A program made the position numbers and the translations under genes. From sequence record OR896830.1: 64,000 nucleotides of DNA. One strand, given 5' to 3'. The notes below the pieces were generated by a model. That model saw only the letters and a list, made by a program, of their open reading frames with translations, ran no database searches and was not told the origin of the DNA. Shown here in pieces: positions 3,601 to 33,382 of this stretch (position 1 is the stretch's first letter; each line of letters begins with the position of its first letter). The DNA is from Escherichia phage LinBro.

Positions 3601-3932
3601 TGGGAACATTAACTATTGATGGTAAGAATAAAATCCTCGCCACGCTAACCCCAACGACTATTATTTTACACAATGTAGACCCAACGGCAGACCCTACAGC
3701 AAATAAGGTTACTCAGCCAGTGGCTATTTATTTTTCTGAACCGGATAATGGCTTAATTGCCTCAGAAGACACAGTTAATATCACTGTTCCAGCTTCTGCA
3801 ACGGTCTCACACTATAGCTTGTGGGATGCTAACGATAAATGCGTGGCAACTGGTGCTCTTAGCAAACCTCAATTCTTTGCTGAAGAAGGTATCTATGTTA
3901 TCTCTTCAGTCTCTGTAGATTTAAACAAATAG
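3600..3932 (+). CDS. hypothetical protein
   Basis: 110 aa ORF translationally coupled (TAATG) to upstream ORF. Confidence 0.4.
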   Translation: MGTLTIDGKNKILATLTPTTIILHNVDPTADPTANKVTQPVAIYFSEPDNGLIASEDTVNITVPASATVSHYSLWDANDKCVATGALSKPQFFAEEGIYVISSVSVDLNK

Positions 3933-3943
3933 GGTGAGTAAAA

Positions 3944-5290
3944 ATGAGTTCGAATATCTTCAGACTTGCTGATAGATTATTCAACCAACCTTTACTAGCC
4001 ACTGAATCATTAGCTCACTCAGCAGCAACTTATGTGAATAACAGATTGCTGGGTGATGTCCAAGCAGCAGTAAACTTTGATAAACCCAAAGGTGAAGCAA
4101 GAAGTCTTTTAAAAGTGAAAGATGACATTGCTATTATCCCTATTATGGGTGGTTTAACCCATCGTATGACATTCATTGATGCAATGTGTACAGGTGGATT
4201 AAGTTCTTATGAAGGTTTGCGTAGAGGCTTTGACGAAGCTTTAGCAGATGAGTCAATCAAGACTATTGTTCTGCACATCGATTCTGGTGGTGGTGAAGCT
4301 TCAGGTTGCTTTGAATTAGCACGTCACATTATGGCTTCAAGAGGCCAAAAGAAAATTATTGCTTATGTAGATGAGTTCGCTTGTTCCGCTGCATACGCTC
4401 TTGCATCTTCTGCTGAAGAAATTATTGCATCACCAGATGCAGATGTTGGTTCTATTGGTGTAATCATGGTTCATCAGGAATTAACTAAGGCATTTGAAAA
4501 GAATGGCGTAACAATTAACGTCATCAAAGCTGGTGAGTTTAAAGGTATGGGTTCACCATTCCAAGCACTTTCAGAAGAAAGCAAAGAAAGACTTCAAAAG
4601 AGAATTAATGATACCTACGCAACCTTTACAGGTTTTGTAGCCGAATCTCGTAATCTCTCTGAAGAAGCTGTAAAGAATACTGAGGCGAATGTTTATTCTG
4701 CTCAGGAAGCTCTTGAACTTGGTTTAATTAACTCAATCATGTCTCAAGATGATTTCTTAAATTACTTACAAGGTTCTGAAGAGGCTCCTGTAAGTTTAAA
4801 CGTTAACAATTCAGGTGAAGAAATGACTGAACAAGAAAAGCAAGAACTAGAAGCTTTGCGTCTTCAGGTTGCTCAAATGAAAGCTAAAGAACAGGAAGCT
4901 GCTTTGTCAGATTTGACTAATAAGATTTCTGCTTCTGCTGAAGCTTTTGGATTTGATGCAAAAGAAGCTGCAACGACTATTTTAGGTGCTGGTCTTGATA
5001 ACCCTCTGAGTGTTCTGTTTATGAATGCTATGGAAGGTGCTAACCAGAAACTTAATGAAACTATCGCGTCCCATGCTTCTGCAATGGAAGAAAAAGAATC
5101 AGAAATTACCAAGCTGAAAGAAACTGCTGGTGCTGTTCTTGAACATTCTAATGCTATGGAAGAAATGGGTAATGACGGCGAAGCTGATTTGGTTGAAGAA
5201 GAAAAAGAACCAGCTAAGAATGCTTCCGAAGACACCGCTGAACAACGCAAACTGGCTCTCCAGAATGCTCTAAAATCTCTTATCAAATAA
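3944..5290 (+). CDS. prohead protease (S49/ClpP-fold) fused to acidic coiled-coil scaffold-like C-terminus
   Basis: N-terminal region resembles the S49 (SppA-like) peptidase fold (IDSGGGEASG, DEFACSAAYALASSA); C-terminal half is Ala/Glu/Lys-rich coiled coil; sits between portal and capsid. Confidence 0.7.
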   Translation: MSSNIFRLADRLFNQPLLATESLAHSAATYVNNRLLGDVQAAVNFDKPKGEARSLLKVKDDIAIIPIMGGLTHRMTFIDAMCTGGLSSYEGLRRGFDEALADESIKTIVLHIDSGGGEASGCFELARHIMASRGQKKIIAYVDEFACSAAYALASSAEEIIASPDADVGSIGVIMVHQELTKAFEKNGVTINVIKAGEFKGMGSPFQALSEESKERLQKRINDTYATFTGFVAESRNLSEEAVKNTEANVYSAQEALELGLINSIMSQDDFLNYLQGSEEAPVSLNVNNSGEEMTEQEKQELEALRLQVAQMKAKEQEAALSDLTNKISASAEAFGFDAKEAATTILGAGLDNPLSVLFMNAMEGANQKLNETIASHASAMEEKESEITKLKETAGAVLEHSNAMEEMGNDGEADLVEEEKEPAKNASEDTAEQRKLALQNALKSLIK

Positions 5291-11276: not shown

Positions 11277-19274
<7,998 letters not shown>

Positions 19275-19276
19275 TA

Positions 19277-20425
19277 ATGGCAGTAGGTGAAATTCAAATT
19301 AGTGCCTTGCCTCAAGCAGCCTTACCAATTGACCTTAGTGATATCTTCCATCTTAAACAGGGTATCGAGGATAAGAGATGTACTCTTGAGCAATTACTTG
19401 CTCCACACTCAAGCCTAAGAAATAACCCACATGGTGTTACTAAGACACAAATTGGTTTAGATAACGTTATTAATGCTCTCCAGTTAGTTGCTGAAAATAA
19501 CTTATCAGATATTGTTAATGTAGCTGAGGCAAGAGCAAATCTACAGATTATGTCTTCAGAAGAGGTTAATAATCTTATTCAACAGCATATTGATGATAAG
19601 AGCAACCCACACAATACTACTAAGGCACAGGTTGGGTTAAGCAATGTTCAGAACTGGGTGACATCTAACCTTTATAATGAGGATGCAGATAAGTATGCTA
19701 CAGCAAGAGCAGTAAATAACTTGTACAAGGCTGTTCAGGCTTCTTATCCAGTAGGTACTATCCATCTCTCTATGAATCCTGCAAACCCTTCTACATATTT
19801 AATTTGTGGAGGTACTTGGGAGTTAGTTTCAAAAGGAAGAGCACTTGTAGGTTATGATAGTGCTTCTAGGCCAGTTGGTTCAACGTTTGGTTCGCAGACT
19901 ACTGCACTGACAGTTAACAACATTCCTGCACATACTCACTCAGTATACGTCACTGGTGGTGGTCACACACACGGTGCAACGGCCTCTATCAGTGCTTTTG
20001 ACTACGGTACTAAAGGGACTACAACGTTTGACTATGGAACAAAGACTGTATCTACTTATGACTATGGTAACAGAACAACCAGTGCTGCTGGTTTAACACA
20101 AACAACATTCATTAATCGTGGTTATGCTGATGGTGGTTGGAGAGGTTTATCAGTTGAGGGGGCAAGCTATGACCCAAGAGCTACGCTGACAACAGCTAAC
20201 AACCACACTCACTCTGTAGCAATTGGTGCGCATAATCACACAGTGGGGATTGGTGCTCACAGCCATTCTGTTGCAATTGGTTCCCACAACCACTCAGCAA
20301 CAGTAACAGTAACCGGAGCAGGTGAGCATTCGCACTCTGGCACAACTGGCACAACTGGTTCTGGTCAAGCGTTTAGCGTTGAACAGCCATCCTTCGTATT
20401 GTATGTATGGCAGAGAACAGCTTAA
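19277..20425 (+). CDS. tail fibre protein with His-rich (HxH) C-terminal tip
   Basis: 382 aa; C-terminal ~150 aa contain repeated HTHS/HNHT/HSHS motifs and a terminal motif shared with the next gene. Confidence 0.6.
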   Translation: MAVGEIQISALPQAALPIDLSDIFHLKQGIEDKRCTLEQLLAPHSSLRNNPHGVTKTQIGLDNVINALQLVAENNLSDIVNVAEARANLQIMSSEEVNNLIQQHIDDKSNPHNTTKAQVGLSNVQNWVTSNLYNEDADKYATARAVNNLYKAVQASYPVGTIHLSMNPANPSTYLICGGTWELVSKGRALVGYDSASRPVGSTFGSQTTALTVNNIPAHTHSVYVTGGGHTHGATASISAFDYGTKGTTTFDYGTKTVSTYDYGNRTTSAAGLTQTTFINRGYADGGWRGLSVEGASYDPRATLTTANNHTHSVAIGAHNHTVGIGAHSHSVAIGSHNHSATVTVTGAGEHSHSGTTGTTGSGQAFSVEQPSFVLYVWQRTA

Positions 20426-20471: not shown

Positions 20472-22805
20472 ATGGCAGATTACAAGTTGAGTGAATTAAA
20501 CTCAATTGATACAATTCGTTCAGACGACCTCCTTCATGTCAGGGTTAAAAAGAGACCTGAAATGCTGGGTGATGAAGACCGTCGAATGACCTATCAAGAC
20601 TTCTTAGCGTCTTTTAAACTAGAAAGATTTGTTCAGATTGCTGGTAGCACTATGACGGGCGACTTAGGGATTGTTAAGTTACTTTATGGTGGTAAGGCAG
20701 TCTTTGACCCTACAGGTTCTTCTGAGATTACTATGGGGGATGTTTTAAAGACTTTTAAAATTAATGCAAATGGTCTTAAACTAACTATTGCAGATGCTTC
20801 AAGGTCTGCAACTGTTTATCATACTCTTAATAAGCCAAGCCCTAATGAACTTGGGATGAGAACTAATGCTGAGAATGATGCTAGATATGCTAGATTAGAA
20901 GTACTAAATACTTTTAAGTCTAGGCAGACAATTGTAGCAGATGGTCAAGCACTGTTGTTAAGAAGTGCAACTGATAGCCCTTCTCTCTATGTTAGAGGTC
21001 AAGACCCATCTGGAACTAATAAATGGTATGTTGGATTTAATACTTCAAATGTTCTTGGATTATCAAATGAAGCCTCTGGCACGACATTGACATTGGATTC
21101 AGCAGGTATTAATTCTAATAAGAATTTAAATATCACTGGTCAGGTTAAACCTTCAGACTGGTCTAACCTAGATGATAGATACTTTACCCAAACATTGGCT
21201 AATCAAAGATTTGCACAGTTGGCTGGTAATAACACTTTTAACGGCACTAATACATTCAACCAACTGAGTGTTTTCAAAAAAGATGGTGAAGCAATTAGGC
21301 TACAGAATGCCAATGCTGCACAACCATTGTACATTAAAGCAATTGATAGCACAGGTGTCAACAGATGGTACATTGGTAATAGTAACGAAGGTGATAACGT
21401 AGCTCTAGAAAACTACAAAACTAGTGGCAAGATTACTGTAGGGACAAGTGTTAATATCAATAAAACACTAACTGTAACTGGTCAAGTTCAACCTTCAGAT
21501 TGGACTAACATTGACTCTAGATATATTCCGGCAGCAACATTAAGTACAATTGCAAGAACTAATGCTAAGAATACTTTTTCTCAAGGTCAGATTATTAAGG
21601 CTGATGGAGAGGGTATTAGACTTCAGGGGGTAAATGATACTGGTGGTTTGTTCTTGCAAGGTTATACTTCTGATGGTGCTAAAAAGTGGTTTATGGGTAC
21701 TAATGCTTCAGGAAACTTTACTATCAGGGAGATGGTGTTAGGTACTGAACTGTCTCTTAGAGAGAACTATATCCAGTTTAATAAGAATGTAACAATCACT
21801 GGGCAGGTTCAACCATCAGACTGGACTAACCTAGATAAAAGGTACTATACCGGTTCAGCATCAAACGCCAGATACATGTATGCAGGAAAAACTGGTGAAG
21901 GTGATAATGATGCTGCTATTGCTTGGGATGCTAAGACAGGGCTGTATAATGTCAAGACTGGAGCTACATCATCAAATCTTTTACTTCAGTTATATCAGGG
22001 GTCTGAGTCATCTACACCGTCTGCGCAGCTAAGATTTAAATGGGCGAATGGTGGTATGTGGTATAGGACATCAAGAGATGGTAATGGCTTTGAGAAAAGT
22101 TGGGCTATGGTGTACACAACTGCACAGAAGCCAACCCCTTCAGATATTGGTGCATACACTAAAGCAGAAACTGACCAGAAGATTGCACAGGCAGTAAGTG
22201 ATTCAACAGACCTTAATAAAATCTACCCTGTTGGTATTGTAACGTGGTTTAACAGTAACGTTAACCCTAATACAGCACTGCCTGGTCTAACTTGGACGTA
22301 CCTTAACAATGGTGTAGGTAGAACAATCAGGATTGCAGCAGCTAACGGTTCAGATGTTGCTACAACTGGTGGTTCAGATTCTGTAACGTTATCTGTTGGT
22401 AACTTACCTTCACACACACACAGTTTTTCTGCTACTACTTCGTCTTTTGACTACGGAACAAAAAACACTAACACGACTGGTGCTCACACCCACTCTGTAA
22501 GTGGTTCTACTTCATCTGCTGGTAACCACAGCCACTCTATTTCGTGGATTGGTCAGAACTCACAGCACTATTCCGGTGGTGGTGGTGGTTACATTGGTAC
22601 AGGGCCGGGTTACACCGATGCTAACGGTGCTCACACCCACTCTGTAAGTGGTACTGCCGCTTCTGCTGGTAACCATGCTCACAGTGTTGGTATTGGTGCT
22701 CACAGTCATACAGTTAGTGGTAACACTGGTGGTACAGGTTCTGGTTCAGCATTTAGTGTTACTAACCAGTTCTATAAGTTAATGGCTTGGGTGAGGACTG
22801 CTTAA
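20472..22805 (+). CDS. long tail fibre protein with three internal tandem repeats and His-rich C-terminal tip
   Basis: 777 aa; three ~110 aa repeats each ending TGQV(K/Q)PSDW(S/T)N(L/I)D.RY; C-terminal HTHS/HSHS/HAHS motifs paralogous to the upstream fibre. Confidence 0.65.
21000..21850 (+). repeat. three tandem ~330-nt coding repeats inside long tail fibre gene
   Basis: Repeat units at approx 21008-21190, 21351-21530, 21671-21850 encode ..(K/R)W(Y/F)(V/I/M)G..(T/N)(G)QV.PSDW.N.D.RY. Confidence 0.55.
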
Positions 22806-22884: not shown

Positions 22885-23079
22885 ATGCCTACAATCCTAG
22901 CAATTCTCCTAAAAAATCTAGGTAGTTTCTTCTGGAAACTCATTTTATCTCTTCTAAGTGAATACATGATTGAGAAAGTGTTCTTTAAGCTTGCAAGATA
23001 CCTTGCGGGTAAGACAGACACCCCTATTGATGATGAATTCGTAGATAACTTAGAAAAAGCTTTTAAGGGGGAGAAATAA
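22885..23079 (+). CDS. small membrane protein (holin-like candidate)
   Basis: 64 aa, N-terminal hydrophobic helix ILAILLKNLGSFFWKLILSLL, charged C-terminus. Confidence 0.3.
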   Translation: MPTILAILLKNLGSFFWKLILSLLSEYMIEKVFFKLARYLAGKTDTPIDDEFVDNLEKAFKGEK

Positions 23080-23451
23080 ATGAAGTGGATAGAGGAAGCT
23101 TTTAAAAATAATATTGGTGCAATTGTTGTTGGTATTTTTAGTGTTATTGGGATGTATACCACGATGCAAGTTTCAAGTGGTAAGCAAGAGGTGTCTGTCA
23201 CAACAAAATTACAGCAGCTAGATAATTATAGCAAATCTAATTACTCAGCTATTCGTGATTTACAGTCTGACATAAGACTTATTCAGTTAGGGATGGAGAA
23301 CCAGAAAGTTCAGTTAGAGAATGTTAAGGGTGAGAATGCAAAACTTACCAAAACTCTTGATAAATTCTCTGACAGTGTGAATAATCTGGCTCAATCAGTA
23401 TCAGCCCTCCAAGCTATTACTGAAAAGAACACAAAGAATACTGAAAAATAA
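23080..23451 (+). CDS. membrane-anchored coiled-coil protein (lysis-related candidate)
   Basis: 123 aa, N-terminal TM segment GAIVVGIFSVIGMY followed by coiled-coil heptads. Confidence 0.3.
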   Translation: MKWIEEAFKNNIGAIVVGIFSVIGMYTTMQVSSGKQEVSVTTKLQQLDNYSKSNYSAIRDLQSDIRLIQLGMENQKVQLENVKGENAKLTKTLDKFSDSVNNLAQSVSALQAITEKNTKNTEK

Positions 23452-23456
23452 AATTT

Positions 23457-23490
23457 AAGGCTCCTTTTTACGGGAGCCTTTTTTTTTTTT
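23457..23490. terminator. bidirectional rho-independent terminator between convergent gene blocks
   Basis: 8-bp stem AAGGCTCC/GGAGCCTT, 8-nt loop, followed by T12; A/T-rich on the other side. Confidence 0.7.
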
Positions 23491-23493
23491 GTT

Positions 23494-24393
23494 TTACTTA
23501 CCTACTGACAGAGGTGCTTCAATCTTTCCTGCATGTTGGTAGTTGCTAATACCACCAATAAAATCACTTGCGGTAAGGTGTTTTAGGTCACTTAGCGTGT
23601 TAAGCTGCACACCAATCTCAAAAGTAGGCGCATGGAACTCTTTATTGTTCATCAGTTCATAAACCTGCTTCATATGGTTCTGATAAATCTGAGTATCCCC
23701 AAAGACACCTATCAAGTACCGTGGAGTATATCCAGTCATCTTGCAAAGTACTTCCAGAATAAAACCATAAGATGCAATGTTAAATGGAAGACCTAAAAAG
23801 GTGTCTACAGAACGTTGATACCATTGTAAGTCAACCTCACCTTCGTTAGTGATATAAATCTGAAACAGAACATGACAAGGTGCTAAAGCCATTGAGTTAG
23901 CTGCAATATCTGCTGCATTCCAAGCATTAACAAGCATGTAACGGTCTGTGATATCACCTTTCATCTTCGTTACTAAGGTCTCTAACTGGTCTACAACACA
24001 ACCGTTATGACCTTCAAAGTTTCTCCACTGAACCCCGTAGATTCTCCCACCTGCATCTTCTAACCAGTCTTGCTCAGAAGAATAGTTAGAGCTTAACCAG
24101 CGTTTAAAATCATCTGACCAGATAGTCCAACGTTCCCCATCATTTTCACCCCAAGTACGGTAACGGAGTTCACCAAGTTTATTCTCACCATTCAGGAACC
24201 ATAAAGCTTCCCCAATAACTTGCCGTGTAAACACCTGTTTAGATGTTAAGAGTGGGAAACCAGTACGCATATCAAAACGAAATTTTGGTGGAGCAAATGC
24301 AGAGATAACATCTCCAGTTCGTGTAGTACGCAGTTCACCAACGGATAAAACATGGTTCAGGATATTTTTGTAACTCAAATCAGCTTGTGACAT
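23494..24393 (-). CDS. thyA: thymidylate synthase
   Basis: Motifs ALAPCH, LQWYQRSVDTFLGLPFNIASY and DTQIYQNH align with the ThyA active-site regions. Confidence 0.9.
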   Translation of the reverse strand: MSQADLSYKNILNHVLSVGELRTTRTGDVISAFAPPKFRFDMRTGFPLLTSKQVFTRQVIGEALWFLNGENKLGELRYRTWGENDGERWTIWSDDFKRWLSSNYSSEQDWLEDAGGRIYGVQWRNFEGHNGCVVDQLETLVTKMKGDITDRYMLVNAWNAADIAANSMALAPCHVLFQIYITNEGEVDLQWYQRSVDTFLGLPFNIASYGFILEVLCKMTGYTPRYLIGVFGDTQIYQNHMKQVYELMNNKEFHAPTFEIGVQLNTLSDLKHLTASDFIGGISNYQHAGKIEAPLSVGK

Positions 24394-24394
24394 A

Positions 24395-24940
24395 TCAAAA
24401 GTGTCCTTTTACTTGTGGAACATAGATTTCAAAGGTTGCTTTACCATCATCTGAAGGTCTCGACTGCACCTTTGCAAATACACGGTTATCATACAGCTTA
24501 TCAAAGAAGTTTTCAAAAGGTAAATACACAGTGGCCTCTTCAGTAACTTTATGGAAAACTGTATGGAAAACTACACCAGCATATGGTAAAGCATCGACAA
24601 GAACACCTGCACCACCAATTACAAAGACATCTTCATCAATAGAGCTATCAAGATACTTCAAAAATGCTCCAAAGGACTCTTTGCTGGCCTTAGCATACAT
24701 TACATCTTCTTTACCAAAGTCTATACCATAATAAGGTACAGAGTTTGTTAAGATAAGGTTTTCACGTTCTGGTAAAGGCTTACTACCCAGAGTCTTGAAA
24801 GTCTCGTTACCCATAACTACTAAGTTATCTTTAGTAAGTCTCTTAAACTCTTGCATATCCTGTTTATGTCGAGGCCACGGCATACCAGTTGGAGTGCCAA
24901 ATTCACCGTTTTCACCACTTGCAAATATTAGTTTAATCAT
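24395..24940 (-). CDS. folA: dihydrofolate reductase
   Basis: N-terminal IFASGENGEFG..GMPW and VMGNETFKTLG..PLPER.N and VIGGAGV motifs typical of DHFR; adjacent to thyA. Confidence 0.8.
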   Translation of the reverse strand: MIKLIFASGENGEFGTPTGMPWPRHKQDMQEFKRLTKDNLVVMGNETFKTLGSKPLPERENLILTNSVPYYGIDFGKEDVMYAKASKESFGAFLKYLDSSIDEDVFVIGGAGVLVDALPYAGVVFHTVFHKVTEEATVYLPFENFFDKLYDNRVFAKVQSRPSDDGKATFEIYVPQVKGHF

Positions 24941-25197
24941 TTTGTAAACCCTTTCTTAATGAACCAGTTGATGACACTCTTCACAACTTTACTACGATGG
25001 TAGATAAAATGTGGAGAGGGTTGGTATGAACCATAAGCCCAGAAAGCGATAATTTCATTACACCCTGTACATCGGGTACTTTCTTCAGCAATATGACCGT
25101 TGACTATTTCACTTACCTCACCTTGTAAGTCTGTACACCCACAATGTGGACATCGGATAGGTGTTCCATCAGACTCATAGCAGTGTTCAATTTTCAT
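24937..25197 (-). CDS. small zinc-ribbon protein
   Basis: 86 aa, CPHCGC...CTGC cysteine pairs. Confidence 0.4.
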   Translation of the reverse strand: MKIEHCYESDGTPIRCPHCGCTDLQGEVSEIVNGHIAEESTRCTGCNEIIAFWAYGSYQPSPHFIYHRSKVVKSVINWFIKKGFTK

Positions 25198-25713
25198 TTA
25201 CTTAACCTCAAAAACTGGCTCAAGAACCAATATAAAGTCTACACAGTCATCTTCTTCATCCAGAATACCATCAAAGTTCTTAGGAACGAAGTCGAAGAGG
25301 CTCATAACAAAACAGTCAGAAGTGACCCTGATAGTTCCTCCCATGTTCTCTACAGTTAACACTGTACGACTTTCTTTTACCTCCCTCAGAAGATTACTCA
25401 CAAAGTCATCTAAGAAGTACTTCATCAGTGACTTGAAACCTTTAGGATAATCTGTACCAGAGTATGTTTCAATCTGTGGTACAAGCTTAACATTTATACT
25501 AGTCTTTGTTAAGAACGTTTTAGAGAACATACTATCAGGTAACTTACAAACAGTCTTTCCAGTACCTTCATGCTCAATCTCAACAAAACCAGCTTCATCG
25601 CCACATGTAACTATTTTAAAAGATGCTTCATTCTCATACTGTGAAGCCATAAACTTTTTAAGCATTTCTTTAAGGAAATCTGCATGAGCATCCTGTAAGA
25701 AGATATCAATCAT
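25198..25713 (-). CDS. hypothetical protein
   Basis: 171 aa ORF, tightly packed with neighbours. Confidence 0.4.
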   Translation of the reverse strand: MIDIFLQDAHADFLKEMLKKFMASQYENEASFKIVTCGDEAGFVEIEHEGTGKTVCKLPDSMFSKTFLTKTSINVKLVPQIETYSGTDYPKGFKSLMKYFLDDFVSNLLREVKESRTVLTVENMGGTIRVTSDCFVMSLFDFVPKNFDGILDEEDDCVDFILVLEPVFEVK

Positions 25714-25726
25714 AGTTAATCACCTA

Positions 25727-26086
25727 TTATGGGAACAGACACTTAATGTCATCGTTTTTGAAAACAAAACTTGTGTAGTTATGACCATCAACATCCAACC
25801 AAACAGCCTGAACATCTACACCATCAAGATTCTGGTAAAGCTCTTTGATGAAGTGGTCTTTTACAATCTGACTGCTAGTTGTTTCCAGCTTAATGTTCGA
25901 GATTGCTGAACCTACAGCCATATAGCCCATGACACGTTTCTTCTCAGTATGCTTAATCTTACCATCTTTGTAAGCCATAATGAGATTGGAAAGAATCTTT
26001 ACACCATAATACTTTTCAAGGTGAGTAGGCACACCATAAAAGCCTAATGCGAAGTTTTCAGAGTGGATAATGTTTTCACGTTTCAT
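25727..26086 (-). CDS. hypothetical protein
   Basis: 119 aa ORF. Confidence 0.4.
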   Translation of the reverse strand: MKRENIIHSENFALGFYGVPTHLEKYYGVKILSNLIMAYKDGKIKHTEKKRVMGYMAVGSAISNIKLETTSSQIVKDHFIKELYQNLDGVDVQAVWLDVDGHNYTSFVFKNDDIKCLFP

Positions 26087-26087
26087 A

Positions 26088-26417
26088 TTAATCTGCCAAC
26101 CTTAAATTGAAATTAACACCAAATTTTTCGCATACTTCCAACATATACTCAAGGGAGACGTTACCAGTGAGGTGGATTATGTTGGATACACGAGCCTGAG
26201 AGATACCACAAATTTTAGCGACTTGCTCTTGAGAAAGACCTCTGGATTTAATCTCTCTCTTAAAACGATGTGCAACGAAGTCTCTCATTTCGTCTACATC
26301 CATTGGACAAATATAACTCTCCATTTCAGCCTCTCTATCAGCCTCCCAATCATCTTGTGGAGCATAAGGGTCAAAAACCTCATTCATCTTTCTTCTTCCG
26401 TTTGCGTGAAGTGTCAA
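26088..26417 (-). CDS. helix-turn-helix DNA-binding protein (XRE-like)
   Basis: C-terminal LSQEQVAKICGISQARVSNI helix-turn-helix; true start may be the internal ATG at 26387. Confidence 0.5.
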   Translation of the reverse strand: MTLHANGRRKMNEVFDPYAPQDDWEADREAEMESYICPMDVDEMRDFVAHRFKREIKSRGLSQEQVAKICGISQARVSNIIHLTGNVSLEYMLEVCEKFGVNFNLRLAD

Positions 26418-26592
26418 TCAATGAATCTATGTTTGTAGCCCTAACCTTTTCACGTTCATCGTTAAGATAATCATCAAGAGCCTTTTCAATCTGTGAATCA
26501 TCTTGACAGATAACTGTAAAGACTGTAAAGCCGTCTGTATCGTCAATTATCTTACCATAACCGCTTCTGGGATGTAACTTTTTAAGAGCCAT
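26380..26592 (-). CDS. hypothetical small protein
   Basis: 70 aa ORF with basic C-terminal tail RKRKKKDE. Confidence 0.3.
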   Translation of the reverse strand: MALKKLHPRSGYGKIIDDTDGFTVFTVICQDDSQIEKALDDYLNDEREKVRATNIDSLIDTSRKRKKKDE

Positions 26593-26593
26593 A

Positions 26594-26977
26594 TCAAATA
26601 CCTGTGCAGCTTCTGTTTTCTAAGAAATACTCAACACCGTACATAGCTTTTTGCATCAAATCTTCTTTAAACTGGATACGGTGGTTGAGCATAGACTGTA
26701 CATCAATATCATCACGGTGTTTCTCTTTAATGTTTGCAGATTGCAGGAAATACTCTGCAAGAACACGATACTGGTAGTCAGTCACCTTATCAGTCATCTC
26801 TGTTAAAGACTCTTCAGAGATTGGTTTAAGTAGCTCACCATTCGCTAGAGCAACACCCTTTACAATCTGACAAGTATCCTCTTGGACGCCTGATAAGTTC
26901 ACATTTGGTAGTTCTGTTGAATGAACTGGTAAACTCATTGTCATAACCATTGCAGCAGCTAATAAAATCTTTTTCAT
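26594..26977 (-). CDS. secreted/periplasmic protein with signal peptide
   Basis: N-terminal MKKILLAAAMVMTMSLPVHS signal-like sequence; RBS GAGG upstream. Confidence 0.5.
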   Translation of the reverse strand: MKKILLAAAMVMTMSLPVHSTELPNVNLSGVQEDTCQIVKGVALANGELLKPISEESLTEMTDKVTDYQYRVLAEYFLQSANIKEKHRDDIDVQSMLNHRIQFKEDLMQKAMYGVEYFLENRSCTGI

Positions 26978-27249
26978 AATGACCTCAAAGTTATATTAAA
27001 TTTTGTATTACGTTGAGTATAAAAATAAGCTATAACACCTGACTTGTCAACAGATTTTATAGCTTATTTGGCAGATTTTTTATAAGGCTACTGCCATCCT
27101 TCCATGCTAGACTACGCCATGCCAAACCAGACTTCACATCACCTTACCGTGCAATACATCACTTAAAAACCCTCTTAGAAGACTCTTAAGTGATACTGGT
27201 GAGTACCCGTTGGTTTATGCTGCTCAGTATACTCACCAAATTTTCTATG

Positions 27250-27438
27250 TCAACAACTTTCTAATAAAGTTTTATGAAGATTTTGCTTAACGACCCGCCT
27301 CACATGCCTATGCTCTTTCTTGATAAAGAGTGACCTCTTCTTAACAGAGCGCCTATTCTTGTAAGTATTACTAGGATACTTATCATGAACCGGACAACAA
27401 CTCCCCGGATTTGTAAACTTGATAATCTCTCTTTTCAC
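27250..27438 (-). CDS. small basic protein (hypothetical)
   Basis: 62 aa Lys/Arg-rich ORF directly downstream of ligase gene. Confidence 0.25.
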   Translation of the reverse strand: MKREIIKFTNPGSCCPVHDKYPSNTYKNRRSVKKRSLFIKKEHRHVRRVVKQNLHKTLLESC

Positions 27439-28577
27439 TATTCATAATCCCTAATAACTAACCCAACAGGGAACAGCAGAGACCCCTTACGAGTCATCTT
27501 CTGGAACTGAACCGTTAAAGGCTTTCCGATAAACTCATCAGGGTGCTCAGCAAGATACTGTTTTTTCTCATGAGTAGTCTTCCATGAGACATCTACAAAG
27601 ACGTTAGGAAGAGTCTCTACAACGAACTTACCATGACCACGTTTATCGGTCTTGACACCAGTAACTTTAAACTCTTCAGTGTGCATCTTCTTGTGCTTAA
27701 TCAAGAAGTATGAACGGTGACCACACTCATAGAAGGAGTCTTCAGAGATTGAACGGTACATTGCACCTTCAAACTTAGCTTCAACCCACTTATCATGAGC
27801 TTCATCAAACTCTTCCCAAGAATTTACACGACGAGATTTAACAGGAACAACTTTACAGCCGTCTCTAAAATCATTCAATGGTGAAGTCTCAATAATATCT
27901 CTACGCTCAGGCCACGTCTTAGTACTGTCACAGATATCGTACCAGTAAAACTTGAGTAGATGTCGGTCAGGATTGTCTTCATTTTTAATCATAGAGACAA
28001 TATCTTCTAAGTCCCACCCATGAGCATAAATCTCACCATCAAATTCATCAACATCTTTATGAATCCTCAACATTGCCATAATGTCAGGTATTAGCTCAGT
28101 AGGAATTTTATAAACAGTATTCTCACGAGAGTATGCTGTAAATACACTACCAATACTCAAGCGTCTTGAAATTCTACAACGAACACCATCAAACTTCGGT
28201 TGAGCATCAGCAGGGAATTTCAAATACTTTGCATGACTAACCTTTGAAGCATCATGAGCAAGCTGTACACCTACCTTCTCAGTATTCTGTGCAGACTCTT
28301 TTGTGTAAGCATAACCTTTACGGTCAACTTGCTTTTTATACTTAGCAGCAACTTCAAAGAGAGCTTGCTGTTCAGCGTTACGCTCATTCTTTTTACCGAT
28401 GTTTTTAGGTTCTGCTGTATACTCTTCAAACATCATCTTGCCATTTTCTTTACCATAGGTTGTAATAACTTTGTCACCTACAGCAACGCATGACCAGACG
28501 TTGAAAGAGCCATCTTTATTTTGTTTGTATAGGATTGTCATTTTATTCCTCTGAGTGATACCAAGTGTTGCAAGCAT
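27438..28577 (-). CDS. ATP-dependent DNA ligase
   Basis: Nucleotidyltransferase motif I KFDGVRC (KxDG) at ~aa 128; 379 aa, T7-ligase-like size. Confidence 0.75.
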   Translation of the reverse strand: MLATLGITQRNKMTILYKQNKDGSFNVWSCVAVGDKVITTYGKENGKMMFEEYTAEPKNIGKKNERNAEQQALFEVAAKYKKQVDRKGYAYTKESAQNTEKVGVQLAHDASKVSHAKYLKFPADAQPKFDGVRCRISRRLSIGSVFTAYSRENTVYKIPTELIPDIMAMLRIHKDVDEFDGEIYAHGWDLEDIVSMIKNEDNPDRHLLKFYWYDICDSTKTWPERRDIIETSPLNDFRDGCKVVPVKSRRVNSWEEFDEAHDKWVEAKFEGAMYRSISEDSFYECGHRSYFLIKHKKMHTEEFKVTGVKTDKRGHGKFVVETLPNVFVDVSWKTTHEKKQYLAEHPDEFIGKPLTVQFQKMTRKGSLLFPVGLVIRDYE

Positions 28578-28734
28578 TACATGCGTAAAGCTCTAAGTCA
28601 TTTTTATCCGGTTTATGAAAACAGTTTGCTCCGCAGTGGCAACGAAATGGCTTTCCACCAACTGTCAGGACGAAGGACTGAATCTTTCCATCAGGAGTTC
28701 GTACAGCATTTTTATGCTTATCTTCTTTGTTCAT
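28543..28734 (-). CDS. small zinc-ribbon protein
   Basis: 63 aa, CHCGANC...CNAC. Confidence 0.35.
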   Translation of the reverse strand: MNKEDKHKNAVRTPDGKIQSFVLTVGGKPFRCHCGANCFHKPDKNDLELYACNACNTWYHSEE

Positions 28735-29036
28735 TTCCTCTTGCCACCAATTTCTACGTCAATAACTTGAACATCACCAGCAACATCAAACTTATGAATG
28801 ATGCTTTCCACAGTGTAAGTCCAACCATCAATGCGAACCAACTCACCTTCTCGTGGGACGATTGGGTTACGTTGAGCTACCGTTGTAGTAGAGTGAACAA
28901 CATCATAACAATAGATATAGTTTACTAGGACTTCCATCGTGAAACCCTCACTCAATAACCGTAGTGTGTGATTGACCATTTTTGCCATAGCTATAAGATG
29001 TTGTTGTTTGGGAGTTTGGACATCTGACAACAACAA
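28731..29036 (-). CDS. hypothetical protein
   Basis: 101 aa ORF. Confidence 0.35.
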   Translation of the reverse strand: MLLSDVQTPKQQHLIAMAKMVNHTLRLLSEGFTMEVLVNYIYCYDVVHSTTTVAQRNPIVPREGELVRIDGWTYTVESIIHKFDVAGDVQVIDVEIGGKRK

Positions 29037-29208
29037 TATCTCTGCTTATAGCATCACCATGTAACTTGTATACTCTGCAATCTTGCATCTCTGGTGGGAG
29101 GCTGTAAGAAGCATTTTTATCTTCATAAGAAGGGTTGCAGCCAGATAGAAAAATAACACCAAGCGCAATTACTGATTTCCACATAATACACCCCTGTTTA
29201 CTGTTCAC
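28948..29208 (-). CDS. putative lipoprotein
   Basis: Signal peptide with lipobox-like FLSGC; likely true start at internal Met MWKSV. Confidence 0.4.
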   Translation of the reverse strand: MNSKQGCIMWKSVIALGVIFLSGCNPSYEDKNASYSLPPEMQDCRVYKLHGDAISRDIVVVRCPNSQTTTSYSYGKNGQSHTTVIE

Positions 29209-29353
29209 GATGCTCTACTTCTCTGTATGTACGTCGATAATGAATGATAAGTGGTGCTAATTCATTGCTTTTAACATTTGAGCGTAACAGTTGCCAGTCA
29301 AAACCTTTACCAACTCTTCCATATAAATTAAAAAACTTAACTTTGCGTTTCAT
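29198..29353 (-). CDS. small basic hypothetical protein
   Basis: 51 aa ORF (MKRKVKFFNLYGRVGKGFDW...) below the ORF-track cutoff, preceded by GGAGATACC RBS-like sequence. Confidence 0.25.
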   Translation of the reverse strand: MKRKVKFFNLYGRVGKGFDWQLLRSNVKSNELAPLIIHYRRTYREVEHREQ

Positions 29354-29371
29354 TTTCGGTATCTCCAATAT

Positions 29372-29599
29372 TCAGAGGTTAATATTAATACGTTCGCCCT
29401 TAAGGACTCCAGTACGGTCCCTTGCAATCTTACCATCAACAATAAGGATATGCACAGACCTTAAAGAGTCATTATTAAAACCTTTTACGAACTTACTAGG
29501 CATCACTACAATAAGCATCTCCTGAATCAACTCTGGAGTATAGCAGTTATCATGAAGTTGTTGGATAACGTCTGCAAGTGTCATTTTTGATGTCTCCAA
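29372..29599 (-). CDS. hypothetical protein
   Basis: 75 aa ORF. Confidence 0.35.
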   Translation of the reverse strand: METSKMTLADVIQQLHDNCYTPELIQEMLIVVMPSKFVKGFNNDSLRSVHILIVDGKIARDRTGVLKGERININL

Positions 29600-29790
29600 T
29601 ACTCAATGTCAATAAGTTCTTGTGCAATGCTTTTCAGATTACCTTTCAAGAAAACCTTCTCAGAACCTGAAAGAGATGAATTGTCAATTAACCTGTTCAT
29701 TCTCTCAAACAACTTCTGCTTACGGTTCTTGATAGTTTCCTTTGAAGCGCCTTTCATCATCGCTGCATGGGTTCTTCCACGATGGCTCAT
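29581..29790 (-). CDS. hypothetical protein
   Basis: 69 aa ORF with GGAGGA RBS 7 nt upstream. Confidence 0.4.
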   Translation of the reverse strand: MSHRGRTHAAMMKGASKETIKNRKQKLFERMNRLIDNSSLSGSEKVFLKGNLKSIAQELIDIEYWRHQK

Positions 29791-29851
29791 AAGTCCTCCT
29801 ATACAAGATATTGTATAAGGTACTCTTCCCTGAGCACCTTGTCAATACTAA

Positions 29852-30408
29852 TTAGTGTACTTCAAGCCAATTCTTACCAACTTTACCAGTACCAGTTACA
29901 AGCGTTTCCTCCTTAAGTCCTAAGTTTCTTGATGCCTGACCATACATCCAGTCAATCACTGCTTTAACATCTTGTGTCATCTCTTCTGGGCACTCCCAAC
30001 TGTTCTCATCGTGGTATGCTAGAAGCAATCTAGCACCAATAGCTGGTTTTCGACCATTCAGCTTTGTAAGACCCTCTTCACAAGTTCTTCTACAAGCGAG
30101 GTTGATGGCTTCATTCTGAACCTGACTTTCCGAACCCATGAGCAGATAATTCAATAGTTTGTGTGGAGATTTACACCACAACCATGCACCAGCAACCTTT
30201 ACAAAACCACCTTTAGAGATTGCAGCAGTCTTACCAAATACCTCTTCAAGAGCCTTCTTAGTGGCTTTGAAGTCAGCTTCCAAATTATCTATCAACTTTT
30301 TAATCTTAGGGAGGCGTACAAAGTAAGTTTGCTTAGTTAAAGCACCTTCTTCGGTTGTTGATGCTTTAATCGTCTTGGCAAACTTCTCATCACCTGCCCC
30401 AAACAATA
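29852..30408 (-). CDS. DNA polymerase (family A), exon 2
   Basis: Begins LFGAGDEK (end of O-helix/motif B) and contains motif C LLLAYHDE; joined in frame to exon 1 by predicted splicing. Confidence 0.7.
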
Positions 30409-31209
30409 CATCTGGTCAATACACTCGCAAGGTGTACCAGTTCTCTTATGAACTTCTCCGCATTTCTACGGAGTGTCGGACTATATCACGTAGTAGTAAT
30501 ACTACCGTTGCACTTGGGAATGGTCATTAGCTTACCACCCTACTCTACTCAGTTCATACATTAAGTATGCTTTTCGATAGTCTCTGAACGTTTCTCTGTT
30601 AGGAACTCTAAAATACTATTGTTTACTAAGGTATGCAATTGCTCTCTGCATATTATCAACGCTATCTGCAAGCAACCCCAAAGCCCTATTGCAATTGTGG
30701 CACAACATACCTCTTACTTTTCCGGTTTTGTGGTCATGGTCAACGACAAGTTTAGCCTTATGCCGTGAACTATTCATGATAAAACCTTCACCGCCACAAA
30801 TTTGACATTTGTAATCACAGTTACGAAGTAGGGTTTCAACCTCTTCTCTTTCTAAACCATATGTTCTCAGGTAGTAATTCTTAACTCTACCTTTCTCTCC
30901 GCAATGCGAAGAACAATAAACTTGCCTTGCTGTTCTAGGCATGAACACCTTCTCACAGCTAGGACATTTCTTAGTAAGAACCCTATGTTCTGCTCTTCTG
31001 TCAAATTTTAATACGCAACTTCTGCACCGTTTTTGATTGTATTGGTATGGTTTAAACTCTGCACCACACTCAGTACACAATCTCTCTTTGTAACCTGCCA
31101 TTGTCTCTCTCCTTTGCTTTAGGAGTCCTAACAGAGACTTCGCTGCTGATTACCATATCTTTACAGACTTAGGCTTCCAGCAATTCACAACGTTTTACAT
31201 GCGCCACTG
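30409..31209 (-). mobile_element. group I intron interrupting the DNA polymerase gene (carries an HNH ORF)
   Basis: Exon 1 ends in U (31210) and intron ends in G (30409); P1 helix exon UAUGCGU with guide GCGCAUG (31204-31198); core elements GTTCAGAGACTA (30589-30578) and GATATAGTCC (30487-30478) on - strand; exon lengths sum in frame (2173+557=2730). Confidence 0.75.
30616..31101 (-). CDS. intron-encoded HNH / endonuclease VII-family homing endonuclease
   Basis: Cys-rich zinc ribbons (CTECG, CRSC, CPSC, CQIC) and VVDHDHKTGKVRGMLCHNCNRALG catalytic motif. Confidence 0.7.
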   Translation of the reverse strand: MAGYKERLCTECGAEFKPYQYNQKRCRSCVLKFDRRAEHRVLTKKCPSCEKVFMPRTARQVYCSSHCGEKGRVKNYYLRTYGLEREEVETLLRNCDYKCQICGGEGFIMNSSRHKAKLVVDHDHKTGKVRGMLCHNCNRALGLLADSVDNMQRAIAYLSKQ

Positions 31210-33382
31210 ACGCATAAATGCCATTCTTGGCTTTCTTACGACCCTTACTAATTTCTTGAAGAAGGTTTGTATCCTGAGTAGCTCGACAAGTCAAGATATC
31301 TTCCTCTTTATTAAGGCTGAAGTAGATGCTATTTAAAGTATGCGCATCAGTTCCTGAGTACACCACGTACAAGTCATTTTCAGAATCATAATGCAAATAC
31401 TTGTCAATCTCTGGGTTTAGATACTGGTCAAAATGTTTGCAATAGTATCTGCCATCCTCTTGTTTGACAAACTCAACTTCTTCTTTACCCTCTGTCACTG
31501 CTTTGGTGAACTCTTTATCACCCATAAAGTTACACAGCAGTACAAGTTGCGCGCTATTCATATCTGCTGAAACAATATTAGTTCCTTCTTCACAAGTCCA
31601 CACCTCCCTCATAGGTGCTCCATAGACAGCAGCACCAGACGGTACGTTTACAATACCATATTGTGTCATACGTCCAGTTGAAGTACCAAACACCATTGCA
31701 CCAGCACTAAGGCGACCATCAGGACGAATCTGGTTCAACCAACCTTTTTCATCATCTTTTGAGTTCTCAATAGTTCTGCGTCGGTGCATTAAAGTATAGT
31801 ACTTAGCAATCTTCTGTCCAAGCTCACCTTCAATCGTATCATAAGATGATTCAGTAAGTTTTGGTGAAGTACGGATTAAGCAAGGCTCAAGCAAATCTGT
31901 GTACTTCTTCACAGACCAGTTATGCTCAATGTACTGTACACCTTCATGTTCAACATAACTCAAACCACACCGCTCAACCATTTCCTGCCACTTAGGATGC
32001 TTTGTAATCATCTTTTTATTGTCTTTGAAACGACAAACTTTAACAGGGCGACCATCTGAGTCTTTCTTGTAGTTCCAGTCATCTGGAATCCAACCAACTG
32101 ATTTCAAGTAGTCTTTAACAACTGCTACCTGAGTCATACGAGAAACTTCGAACTCAATTGGTGTATATGGTGCATCAATCAAACCTGTGTAGCGACTTGA
32201 CTCAAGTTCAAAGTGATTGACAACGTGACTGTTATAGTACTTCACAGTCTTGACTGTTTTTACTGGTTTCCAGTCTTTGCATTTTTTGCCAATCTTTGCA
32301 TTCAACTCGTTGCAGATTGCACGAGCATCCTTCATCGCTACAAAACCCTCTTTGTACTCTTCACCAGTTACAGAGTTGGTTGGTGTATAGCAATTTCTCT
32401 TTTCAATGTTAAAAATCTTTGTAGTTGGCTTACCAAATGGTTTGATTTCATAAGTCTGCATCTCACCATTACGTACCTGCTGACGGTACTTTGTCTTAGG
32501 GTACTTGGTAATTCTCTTCAGTCCATCTGCATGACCAAATGTTTCAACATACTCATTCCAAGCTTTTGCAAACTCTTCTCCAGTCACTTTACCTTTGGTC
32601 TTAATAGTTGGAGGTAGATGTGGTTCAACCTCTGAAGCAAGCTCATTAGTCAACTTGTCAAGTTCCTTTACATGGAACTCCATAAGCTCCTTATCAGCTT
32701 TCCAACCATTGATAGCTTGTTGACTCATCCAGAAAGATGTTTCTTTAGCTCGCATATAGGTTTCATAAGTATCTATGCCACACTTCTTAAGCTTGAGATA
32801 CTCATTATCAAGTGCCCGTTTAGTTTTGGCGTTAATACGGATATCTTCTACAACACGAGTGAAGATTTCTGCATTCCACACACCCCAATGTTCAATCTCT
32901 GGTTTACGGACACCAACACGAGCACCCCATGCAGCCAAACCATGAGCACCTTTATAACCCTTTGGGGTTGGCCTATCCATCCACTGAACACGAGACTGGA
33001 TAAGAGAATCCTGAAAGAAATTACTCCACGGCTTACATTTTGGATTATCAAAGTTCCATAAATCAGGCGCAATGTGATTGAAAACCCACCAGTCATAGCC
33101 GAGACCATTATGGATGCAAAGACGTTTTGCCTTTAACGCAAATTCAACACCTTCACGTAAGCCGCCCTTGATGTACTTAGTGTACTTGTGACCGAGGATA
33201 GGTTCATCTGTAAAGACCCATACAGGTGGCTCTTCATCATCAGATTTATAGTCTGCGAAAGCCATTACGTGCACTTTAGTGAACTCAAGGAGTAAACCAT
33301 CAGTTTCTGTATCACCAACCAAATGTAAGTTTTTAAAATCTACGTTTTCCATTTTTACTCCCTCTAAAATCATTAACCTCAT
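31210..33382 (-). CDS. DNA polymerase (family A), exon 1 with 3'-5' exonuclease domain
   Basis: Exo I motif HLVGDTETDGL near N-terminus; motif A-like IVSADMNSAQL; motif B start RKKAKNGIY just before the splice site; the track ORF continues 41 nt into the intron to stop at 31169. Confidence 0.75.

Follow-up and report, generated by a model that had tools for sequence, protein, structure and literature searches.

Conserved small genes between the dihydrofolate reductase and DNA polymerase genes of the Felix O1-like Escherichia phage LinBro

Results

In Escherichia phage LinBro (OR896830.1), positions 24937-29790 of the 64,000-nucleotide stretch of DNA analysed here (the window) hold a block of small minus-strand genes between the genes for dihydrofolate reductase (DHFR) and DNA polymerase. 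The original prediction, made from the letters of the sequence, had described ten to eleven small open reading frames (ORFs) at this place, had taken them for an accessory block interrupting the replication genes and had suspected an undescribed system among them. Small minus-strand ORFs are present at these coordinates and are real genes, as indicated by their matches to PHROG families, their ratios of non-synonymous to synonymous substitution (dN/dS), their protein clusters and their operon-like overlaps, but thirteen were found between DHFR and the polymerase (genes A to M, 51-171 amino acids (aa)). The block consists of the highly conserved small early genes and the DNA ligase of nearly every Felix O1-like phage and is an already catalogued replication-module gene set, not a new system.

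The genes are listed in plus-strand order, from the thymidylate synthase (TS) gene (23494-24393, minus strand) and DHFR (24395-24940, minus strand) to the polymerase, and transcription of the minus strand runs the opposite way, from polymerase to TS. GC skew is negative across about 24-33 kb of the window, consistent with a cluster of minus-strand genes. Several starts and stops overlap (A/DHFR, H/I and L/M by 4 nt each, D/E by 8 nt, G/ligase by 1 nt) and others abut, which is an operon-like arrangement. The predicted location among replication genes is correct, but plain interruption does not describe it, as the gene for an ATP-dependent DNA ligase (27438..28541, minus strand) is interleaved with the small genes. 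Neither is the block one continuous run of genes: a non-coding spacer of 270 bp (26978-27249) between F and G, carrying two promoter-like sites, divides it into two units.

When the region 24400-30500 was compared by megablast with 50,697 phage records, 259 records matched. The best matches were all Felixounavirus, Felix O1-like myoviruses that infect Escherichia, Salmonella, Shigella and Citrobacter. Coverage of the region reached 80% or more in 179 of the 259 records, mostly at 90-95% identity. Annotations of phages JK55, Tribble, Bas63 and FO1a give the order TS-DHFR-A-B-C-D-E-F-[variable spot]-ligase-H-I-J-K-L-M-polymerase, and in these phages tblastn detected the orthologues in identical order and with 74-100% protein identity. 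With small changes the order is also kept in Suspvirus SUSP1, whose block lacks J, K and M, and in Mooglevirus Michonne, which lacks H, has L and M in exchanged order and contains additional genes in between. Within the genus, C, D, E and M are 98-100% identical and TS, DHFR, ligase and polymerase are more variable, and B and F each occur in 258 phage records, all of them enterobacterial Ounavirinae. The block is thus core to the genus, syntenic in three genera (Felixounavirus, Suspvirus and Mooglevirus) and, gene G excepted, not accessory as had been proposed.

The block of LinBro belongs to the conserved replication module of Felixounavirus, with one-to-one orthologues in the same order in Felix O1 (gp81-gp93) and Bas63 (JohannRWettstein; g32-g45), and it shares with them its flanks, TS and DHFR on one side and DNA polymerase on the other. 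In the Bas63 record MZ501086, A to F correspond to bas63_0032-0037, the ligase to 0039 and H to M to 0040-0045; that the 'gN' numbers of PhageMaP are Bas63 locus-tag numbers was verified via g65, g79/80 and g84/85. Bas63 differs in having g38 where LinBro has gene G, and in a free-standing homing endonuclease after M, which is absent from the window, where instead the polymerase gene is interrupted further upstream.

All thirteen small genes match PHROG families (E 1e-16 to 1e-91), and these are of unknown function for all but D, annotated as a transcriptional regulator, in line with the prediction that most of the genes would have no assignable function. Exact copies of each protein are found in public clusters of 14-1313 members, and a plausible ribosome-binding site precedes most of the genes. 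In comparisons with six relatives (JK55, Tribble, Bas63, FO1a, SUSP1 and Michonne), Nei-Gojobori dN/dS was 0-0.4 for almost all of the small genes, the highest values being those of F (0.45-0.58) and B (0.36) against other genera. ORFs A to M are real genes under purifying selection.

The XRE-type helix-turn-helix (HTH) protein of the original prediction is the product of gene D (26088..26387, minus strand; 99 aa; orthologue of Bas63 g35). It belongs to the Pfam family HTH_3 (PF01381; 39.7 bits against a cut-off of 23, E 4.9e-10, residues 43-93), also passes HTH_37 (28.2 bits against 27) and matches phrog_1373. D shares these two HTH domains with XRE/Cro-C1 regulators and controller (C) proteins and weakly matches PADLOC control-protein models, but differs from them in an acidic N-terminal extension of about 40 aa and in being encoded by a strictly lytic phage. 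As D is 100% identical over 99 aa to Bas63-035 (g35), it is the same protein as the trigger of the DRT7 defence. Three out of three Bas63 mutants escaping DRT7 carried start-codon or frameshift mutations in Bas63-035, and this protein was toxic only when co-expressed with DRT7 and triggered DRT7 abortive infection (bioRxiv 10.64898/2026.04.18.719102). The gene can be inactivated with plaque formation intact and is dispensable in Bas63 (bioRxiv 10.64898/2026.04.18.719102).

Gene A (24937..25197, minus strand; 86 aa; orthologue of Bas63 g32 and FO1a gp81), whose stop overlaps the DHFR start, encodes one of the two predicted zinc-ribbon proteins, a Cys-rich product with six Cys in the arrangement CPHCGC...CTGC. 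It matches phrog_2993 (E 4.7e-41), has dN/dS of 0.1-0.18 and occurs in 412 phage records, T4-like and Seuratvirus-like phages among them. The layout of its N-terminal 50 residues is that of the zinc knuckle of Lar/RalR, the restriction-alleviation protein of the Rac prophage, CPHCGC-x23-CTGC of A aligning with CPFCGC-x17-CNGC of K-12 RalR/Lar; BLASTP gave 24% identity over 37 aa (E 0.007) and there was a sub-threshold match to NF047912 (E 3e-4). Unlike Lar/RalR, however, A has a C-terminal extension of 35 aa and stays far under the family cut-offs, with 18.1 bits against 39.6 for TIGR03655 (Lar; E 0.0024) and no match to the Pfam Lar family PF14354 at E up to 0.1. The Bas63 orthologue g32 has been called Lar-like, and DH10B depends on it less than three other strains do (PMC11482910). 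As an indirect likeness to Lar/RalR, the need for the gene is conditional and arises in strains that have more restriction systems (PMC11482910). The '90% homology' stated in that preprint (PMC11482910) was not reproduced for A at the sequence level and is no sequence identity. A relationship of A to YdaE, also of the Rac prophage, was considered as well and dropped, since no similarity was detected.

Gene B (25198..25713, minus strand; orthologue of Bas63 g33) encodes an acidic protein of 171 aa (isoelectric point (pI) 4.6) that matches phrog_4422 (E 3.6e-91), is 98-99% identical within the genus and 37-41% between genera, and has no relative in Pfam, NCBIfam, PADLOC or the PDB. Its only exact match among NCBI proteins is WWD12470.1 of Escherichia phage LinBro. 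Suspvirus and Mooglevirus carry an extra gene of 166 aa (phrog_9143) between B and C (SUSP1 3777-4277; Michonne 11790-12293), which Felixounavirus lacks; it is not a paralogue of B, as BLASTP gave no alignment and the PHROG differs. Gene C (25727..26086, minus strand; 119 aa; orthologue of Bas63 g34) is invariant within the genus. Its predicted fold is confident (predicted local distance difference test (pLDDT) 88) and has no neighbour in the PDB, and only 8 relatives were found among 1.84 billion representative proteins; long multi-stretch matches (1844, 1285 and 552 aa) were to Ig/MucBP-type repeat proteins and were judged spurious. Gene E (26380..26592, minus strand; 70 aa; orthologue of Bas63 g36) is 99-100% conserved within the genus, matches phrog_4473 (E 2.3e-45) and belongs to a cluster found on at least 1000 contigs.

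The predicted signal-peptide protein and lipoprotein are the products of genes F and J. Gene F (26594..26977, minus strand; 127 aa; orthologue of Bas63 g37) begins with a signal-like sequence (MKKILLAAAMVMTMSLPVHS/TE), its pattern MKK-ILLAAAMVMTMSL-PVHS being judged by eye, and has two Cys in its mature part; it is mostly helical and, from its sequence, probably a periplasmic protein. It matches phrog_4332 and evolves faster than any other gene of the block, with 32-35% identity between genera; its structural model is unusable (pLDDT 38.9), and its only exact NCBI protein match is WWD12474.1 of Escherichia phage LinBro. Homologue searches with A, B and F yielded 4 near-identical clusters each and the alignments stayed shallow. 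Gene J (28948..29184, minus strand; 78 aa; orthologue of Bas63 g42; phrog_902, E 1.9e-16) encodes a predicted lipoprotein precursor: MWKSVIALGVIFLSGC conforms to the bacterial-type lipobox [LVI][ASTVI][GAS]C with the residues LSGC, Asn stands at +2, the lipobox Cys is invariant in six diverged family members and there is a conserved Cys pair. In the family alignment (A4), C16, L29-P30, D35-C36, C55-P56 and G67-K68 are invariant. The J family was found in 584 phage records, including Ounavirinae, Vibrio Demerecviridae, where a tRNA cluster encloses the gene, Acinetobacter Obolenskvirus, Aeromonas Straboviridae and jumbo phages. With phmmer, neither F nor J matched any PDB chain at E up to 10, and no sequence similarity to the solved T4 Spackle or T5 Llp was seen among these chains.

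The interleaved ligase (367 aa; orthologue of Bas63 g39) belongs to PF01068 (33 bits against 26.2) and carries the KxDG motif as KFDG; it matches phrog_114 (E 1.2e-95) and is labelled ligase in relatives, and its OB domain scores 23.5 bits, below the cut-off of 28. Gene H (28543..28734, minus strand; 63 aa; orthologue of Bas63 g40; phrog_5768), which ends 1 nt before the ligase start, encodes the second predicted zinc-ribbon-like protein, with five Cys (RCHCGANC...CNAC). H forms two allele groups, with members either 95-100% or about 75% identical, and the allele of the window, 74% identical to Bas63 g40 over 62 aa (BLASTP), is in the other group. The synonymous distance (dS) between the allele groups is 1.5-1.8 and the flanking genes I and ligase are much closer, which indicates mosaic exchange of a single small gene. 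Outside Ounavirinae the family gave nothing beyond weak matches (E 4e-3) to Microbacterium phages, and in Erwinia phages the orthologues adjoin an NrdA-like gene, not a ligase. According to PMC11482910, Bas63 g40 triggers the Hhe defence, being toxic only together with Hhe, and is more dispensable in several defence strains. The label 'DNA ligase' given to some of these 63-aa proteins raised the idea that H is a detached ligase zinc finger, which was rejected because no fused form was found, because of the NrdA-like neighbour in Erwinia phages and because Michonne lacks H.

The several small basic proteins that had been predicted are those of G, K and M (pI 10.3-10.5). Gene G (27250..27438, minus strand; 62 aa, pI 10.5; phrog_5428, E 4.5e-29), whose GTG start codon overlaps with the end of the ligase gene, was missing in JK55, Tribble, Bas63, FO1a and Michonne, five of the six relatives, and present with 94% identity in SUSP1. 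It is found in 144 records, mostly Salmonella phages of about 157 kb at about 71% identity, as well as in Pseudomonas phage phiPMW (59%), and in only about 23 Felix O1-like records. The comparison with relatives, proposed as a way of finding which ORFs vary, leaves G as the sole truly accessory gene of the block, and it looks like a small gene moving between phage families. Gene I (28731..28937, minus strand; 68 aa; orthologue of Bas63 g41; phrog_4427, E 4.3e-46) has dN/dS of 0.03-0.31 and is 96-100% identical within the genus, 90% in SUSP1 and 48% in Michonne. Gene K (29198..29353, minus strand; 51 aa, pI 10.4; orthologue of Bas63 g43) matches phrog_2381 (E 6.6e-20) with dN/dS of 0.04-0.26. 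Gene L (29372..29584, minus strand; 70 aa; orthologue of Bas63 g44; phrog_4230, E 6.5e-42) is 87-99% identical within the genus and 51% in Michonne, where it lies on the opposite side of M. Gene M (29581..29790, minus strand; 69 aa, pI 10.3; orthologue of Bas63 g45; phrog_5180, E 2.3e-46), the first gene after the polymerase, is 100% identical in JK55, Tribble, Bas63 and FO1a and 87% in Michonne; its 284 records include Erwinia Ounavirinae and Citrobacter and Enterobacter phages of about 170 kb at 50-59% identity.

The spacer between F and G contains two sites resembling sigma-70-type promoters, both on the minus strand. P1 (27253..27226; TTGACA-16-TATACT), the promoter-like site closest to consensus in the window, agrees with the consensus at 11 of 12 positions. 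No other TTGACA-N16-18-TATAMT site exists in the window, and P1 is conserved in FO1a, JK55 and Bas63; its -10 hexamer lies within a perfect 9-bp inverted repeat (I6, 27197-27205 / 27230-27238). P2 (27050..27022; TTGACA-17-TATTTT; 10/12 in the promoter scan) sits in the loop and 3' arm of a palindrome with 19-nt arms (I1, 27023-27041 / 27051-27069; 89% complementary), and the approximately 110 nt around it are identical in Felixounavirus and Suspvirus (SUSP1). As RNA, the palindrome would fold with -24.9 kcal/mol (z = -3.8) and is followed by a U-run; it may be either an operator or an RNA stem-loop with U-run. The leader RNA from P1 is overall not unusually structured (z = -1.19) and the P2 stem-loop alone stands out; a non-coding transcript of about 190 nt may start at P1 and end at this stem-loop.

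Between P1 and P2, a G·U-rich stem-loop (ATCACTTAAGAGTCTTC..GAGGGTTTTTAAGTGAT, 27158-27194, minus strand) is followed by degenerate period-5 GGT pentamers, the whole extending over 27085..27194. The GGT run is marginal in the window, with 8 of 13 in phase, and clearer in Bas63; as 1 of 20 shuffles reached the same value, it was rejected as a statistically strong feature of the window. The spacer module is repeated 2-3 times in relatives (JK55, Bas63, Tribble and SUSP1), with extra ORFs between the copies. T4-type phages reportedly possess hyperplastic regions and promoter/stem-loop (PeSL) cassettes, which Arbiol et al. are said to have described in 2010. The spacer between F and the ligase likewise joins promoter-like sites to stem-loops, in 2-3 copies in relatives, and ORFs likewise come and go in it: LinBro has G there, Tribble and SUSP1 have two genes, and Bas63 has an ORF of 48 aa. 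The sequences are, however, unrelated to those of T4 PeSL cassettes, and the LinBro version is a stem-loop with a period-5 GGT run; the likeness lies in the arrangement, with no recombination event demonstrated. With this reservation, the spacer is best viewed as a promoter/stem-loop cassette at a putative hyperplastic insertion site.

Discussion

The block at 24937-29790 would form part of the leftward early/middle cluster of Felixounavirus, which spans DNA polymerase to TS. From the gene order and the promoter-like sites, two co-directional transcription units are probable: a first consisting of polymerase, M, L, K, J, I, H, ligase and G, and a second, starting after P1/P2, of F, E, D, C, B, A, DHFR and TS, which would end at the bidirectional terminator at 23457-23480. 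In this scheme A would be a Lar-like zinc ribbon and a candidate anti-restriction factor, and D an XRE-type DNA-binding regulator that probably acts on the P2 palindrome, for which this palindrome is the most likely operator, and so autoregulates its own operon. D would also be the protein sensed by the host DRT7 defence, and H a zinc ribbon sensed by Hhe. F would be a periplasmic protein after export and J a lipoprotein anchored in the outer membrane, and the two would probably modify the envelope of the infected cell; G would be an additional, mobile gene that entered a hyperplastic site beside the ligase; and B, C, E, I, K, L and M may be described as lineage-conserved proteins of unassigned activity.

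The best explanation, and one that we consider probable, is a two-unit early/middle cluster in which the small genes are independent single-protein functions fixed in the lineage and not parts of one machine. Outside the subfamily the families occur without one another, J, A, M and G each in different phage groups, and this separate distribution of each family argues for independent single-gene functions. Several points weigh on the other side. For ten of the thirteen genes there is no experimental or homology-based function, so that the independence of the functions is read from phyletic patterns only. The order kept over three genera and the 98-100% identity seen for C, D, E and M could be signs of functional coupling, with the replication proteins for instance. 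Between H and the Bas63 protein tested with Hhe the identity is only 74%, and the promoter scan as a whole does not exceed shuffled sequences (28 sites against 31.8 expected). A literature search found no transcript data for any Felix O1-like phage, Felix O1 transcript timing included, and no other essentiality screens covering Felixounavirus.

The coupling to replication can be put as an explanation of its own, in which the invariant C, D, E and M are accessory subunits or regulators of replication and nucleotide metabolism, with H and G beside the ligase and A beside DHFR as possible further members. These genes lie among polymerase, ligase, DHFR and TS, the four invariant ones vary less across the genus than these enzymes, start/stop coupling links A to DHFR and H and G to the ligase, and M also occurs in T4-like phages. 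However, D can be inactivated in Bas63 escapers with plaque formation intact, the H orthologues of Erwinia phages adjoin the NrdA-like gene and no ligase fusion was found, and no domain ties any of the small proteins to replication. This explanation is regarded as possible, though rather doubtful.

A similarly tentative place is given to the suggestion that F, as a periplasmic protein, and J, as a lipoprotein, act in superinfection exclusion or lysis control in the manner of T4 Spackle or T5 Llp, which are early proteins of small size, either exported or lipidated. Like these proteins and T4 Imm, J and F are small, encoded in the early cluster, putatively exported or lipidated and equipped with a Cys pair, in the case of F together with the signal-like sequence and in the case of J, where the pair is conserved, together with the lipobox. 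Both genes belong to the leftward early/middle cluster downstream of promoter-like sites, and F is the quickest-evolving gene of the block, as would be expected of an arms-race protein. On the other hand, no sequence similarity to Llp, Spackle or Imm was detected and neither protein has a sequence relative among solved structures, and the J family is spread over unrelated phage families that are expected to use very different receptors, its gene never adjoining that of a receptor-binding protein, which argues against receptor masking of the Llp type.

A bolder proposal, that D and the P2 palindrome constitute an autoregulatory switch of the operon from F to TS and that their genus-invariant neighbours, chiefly C, serve as essential cofactors, of a new type, in host takeover or replication, appears unlikely to us. 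C is the protein whose confident predicted fold has no neighbour among solved structures. If true, at least one protein family of the block would be new and have a new activity, and the block would also contain the molecular cue that is read by DRT7.

Still less credit can be given to the idea that the block is one coherent, undescribed multi-gene system for host takeover or anti-defence, as the original prediction had suggested. The tight co-directional packing with overlapping starts and stops, the order conserved over three genera and the genetic interaction of three members with host defences in Bas63 would be compatible with it. Yet members have been lost, reordered and replaced independently, with J, K and M missing from the SUSP1 block, H from that of Michonne, and L and M swapped and other genes interleaved in the latter; each family is distributed separately in unrelated phages; and the three known phenotypes concern three unrelated defences. 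Furthermore, a PADLOC scan of ten of the thirteen small genes (A to F, H to J and M) gave generic HTH or control-protein matches for D, one weak match for M and otherwise none. What is in part borne out is the suggestion that the region serves interaction with the host, as the Bas63 orthologues of A, H and D (g32, g40 and g35) are linked to defence (PMC11482910; bioRxiv 10.64898/2026.04.18.719102). Finally, that several of the small ORFs are chance open frames, as a length of only 51-70 aa and the lack of domain hits might suggest, is for practical purposes refuted by the PHROG matches of all of them, dN/dS well below 1 against diverged relatives, plausible ribosome-binding sites and retention in hundreds of genomes.

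The window thus adds a further example of a block shared by over 250 sequenced Felix O1-like phages, and the finding itself is not new. New here are the confident fold prediction of C without a PDB neighbour, the breadth of the lipobox family of J and the invariant P2 palindrome. The block offers a compact list of unexplained, strongly conserved genes in a phage group used for Salmonella typing and phage therapy, and three of its thirteen small proteins have Bas63 orthologues with published links to bacterial immunity, which senses them or which they would counteract (DRT7, Hhe and restriction). These three, together with C, with a confident predicted fold and no solved relative, and J, from a lipoprotein family of many unrelated virulent phages, are cheap and well-defined experimental targets.

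Other features of the window

The DNA polymerase gene (29852-33382, minus strand) is split within motif B (...KNGIYA|LLFGAG), its parts corresponding to JK55 residues 1-714 and 716-900, by an insertion of about 0.8 kb (approximately 30407-31168) that carries an ORF of the endonuclease VII/HNH type (30616-31101, phrog_307). The arrangement is the same in Tribble, and the gene is uninterrupted in JK55, Bas63, FO1a, SUSP1 and Michonne. A match of the insertion to the group I intron family RF00028 (31050-31186, minus strand; E 2.6e-4) reached 28.1 bits against a threshold of 50. The 3' exon (29852-30406) has dS above 1 relative to JK55 and Bas63 and the 5' part (31169-33382) a dS of about 0.3, a contrast that suggests allele exchange (co-conversion) beside the endonuclease insertion site.

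A scan with Rfam detected no family in the block, the other match at E up to 1 being a chance snoRNA, and nowhere in the 64 kb did any family, tRNA included, reach its gathering score. Since no tRNA was found, the tRNA cluster typical of Felix O1-like phages must sit outside the window.

Repeated GAHxHxV and His-rich motifs, belonging to the direct repeat families D1 and D6, occur in the tail-fibre gene or genes (20224-20299 and 22479-22715) and resemble the HxH repeats of other phage fibre tips. The tail fibre gene is followed by two small plus-strand genes (64 and 123 aa; 22885-23480), and in the annotations of SUSP1 and Michonne the counterpart of the 123-aa gene is labelled a putative holin. 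The terminator at 23457-23480, a strong bidirectional one, ends both these plus-strand genes and the minus-strand TS operon.

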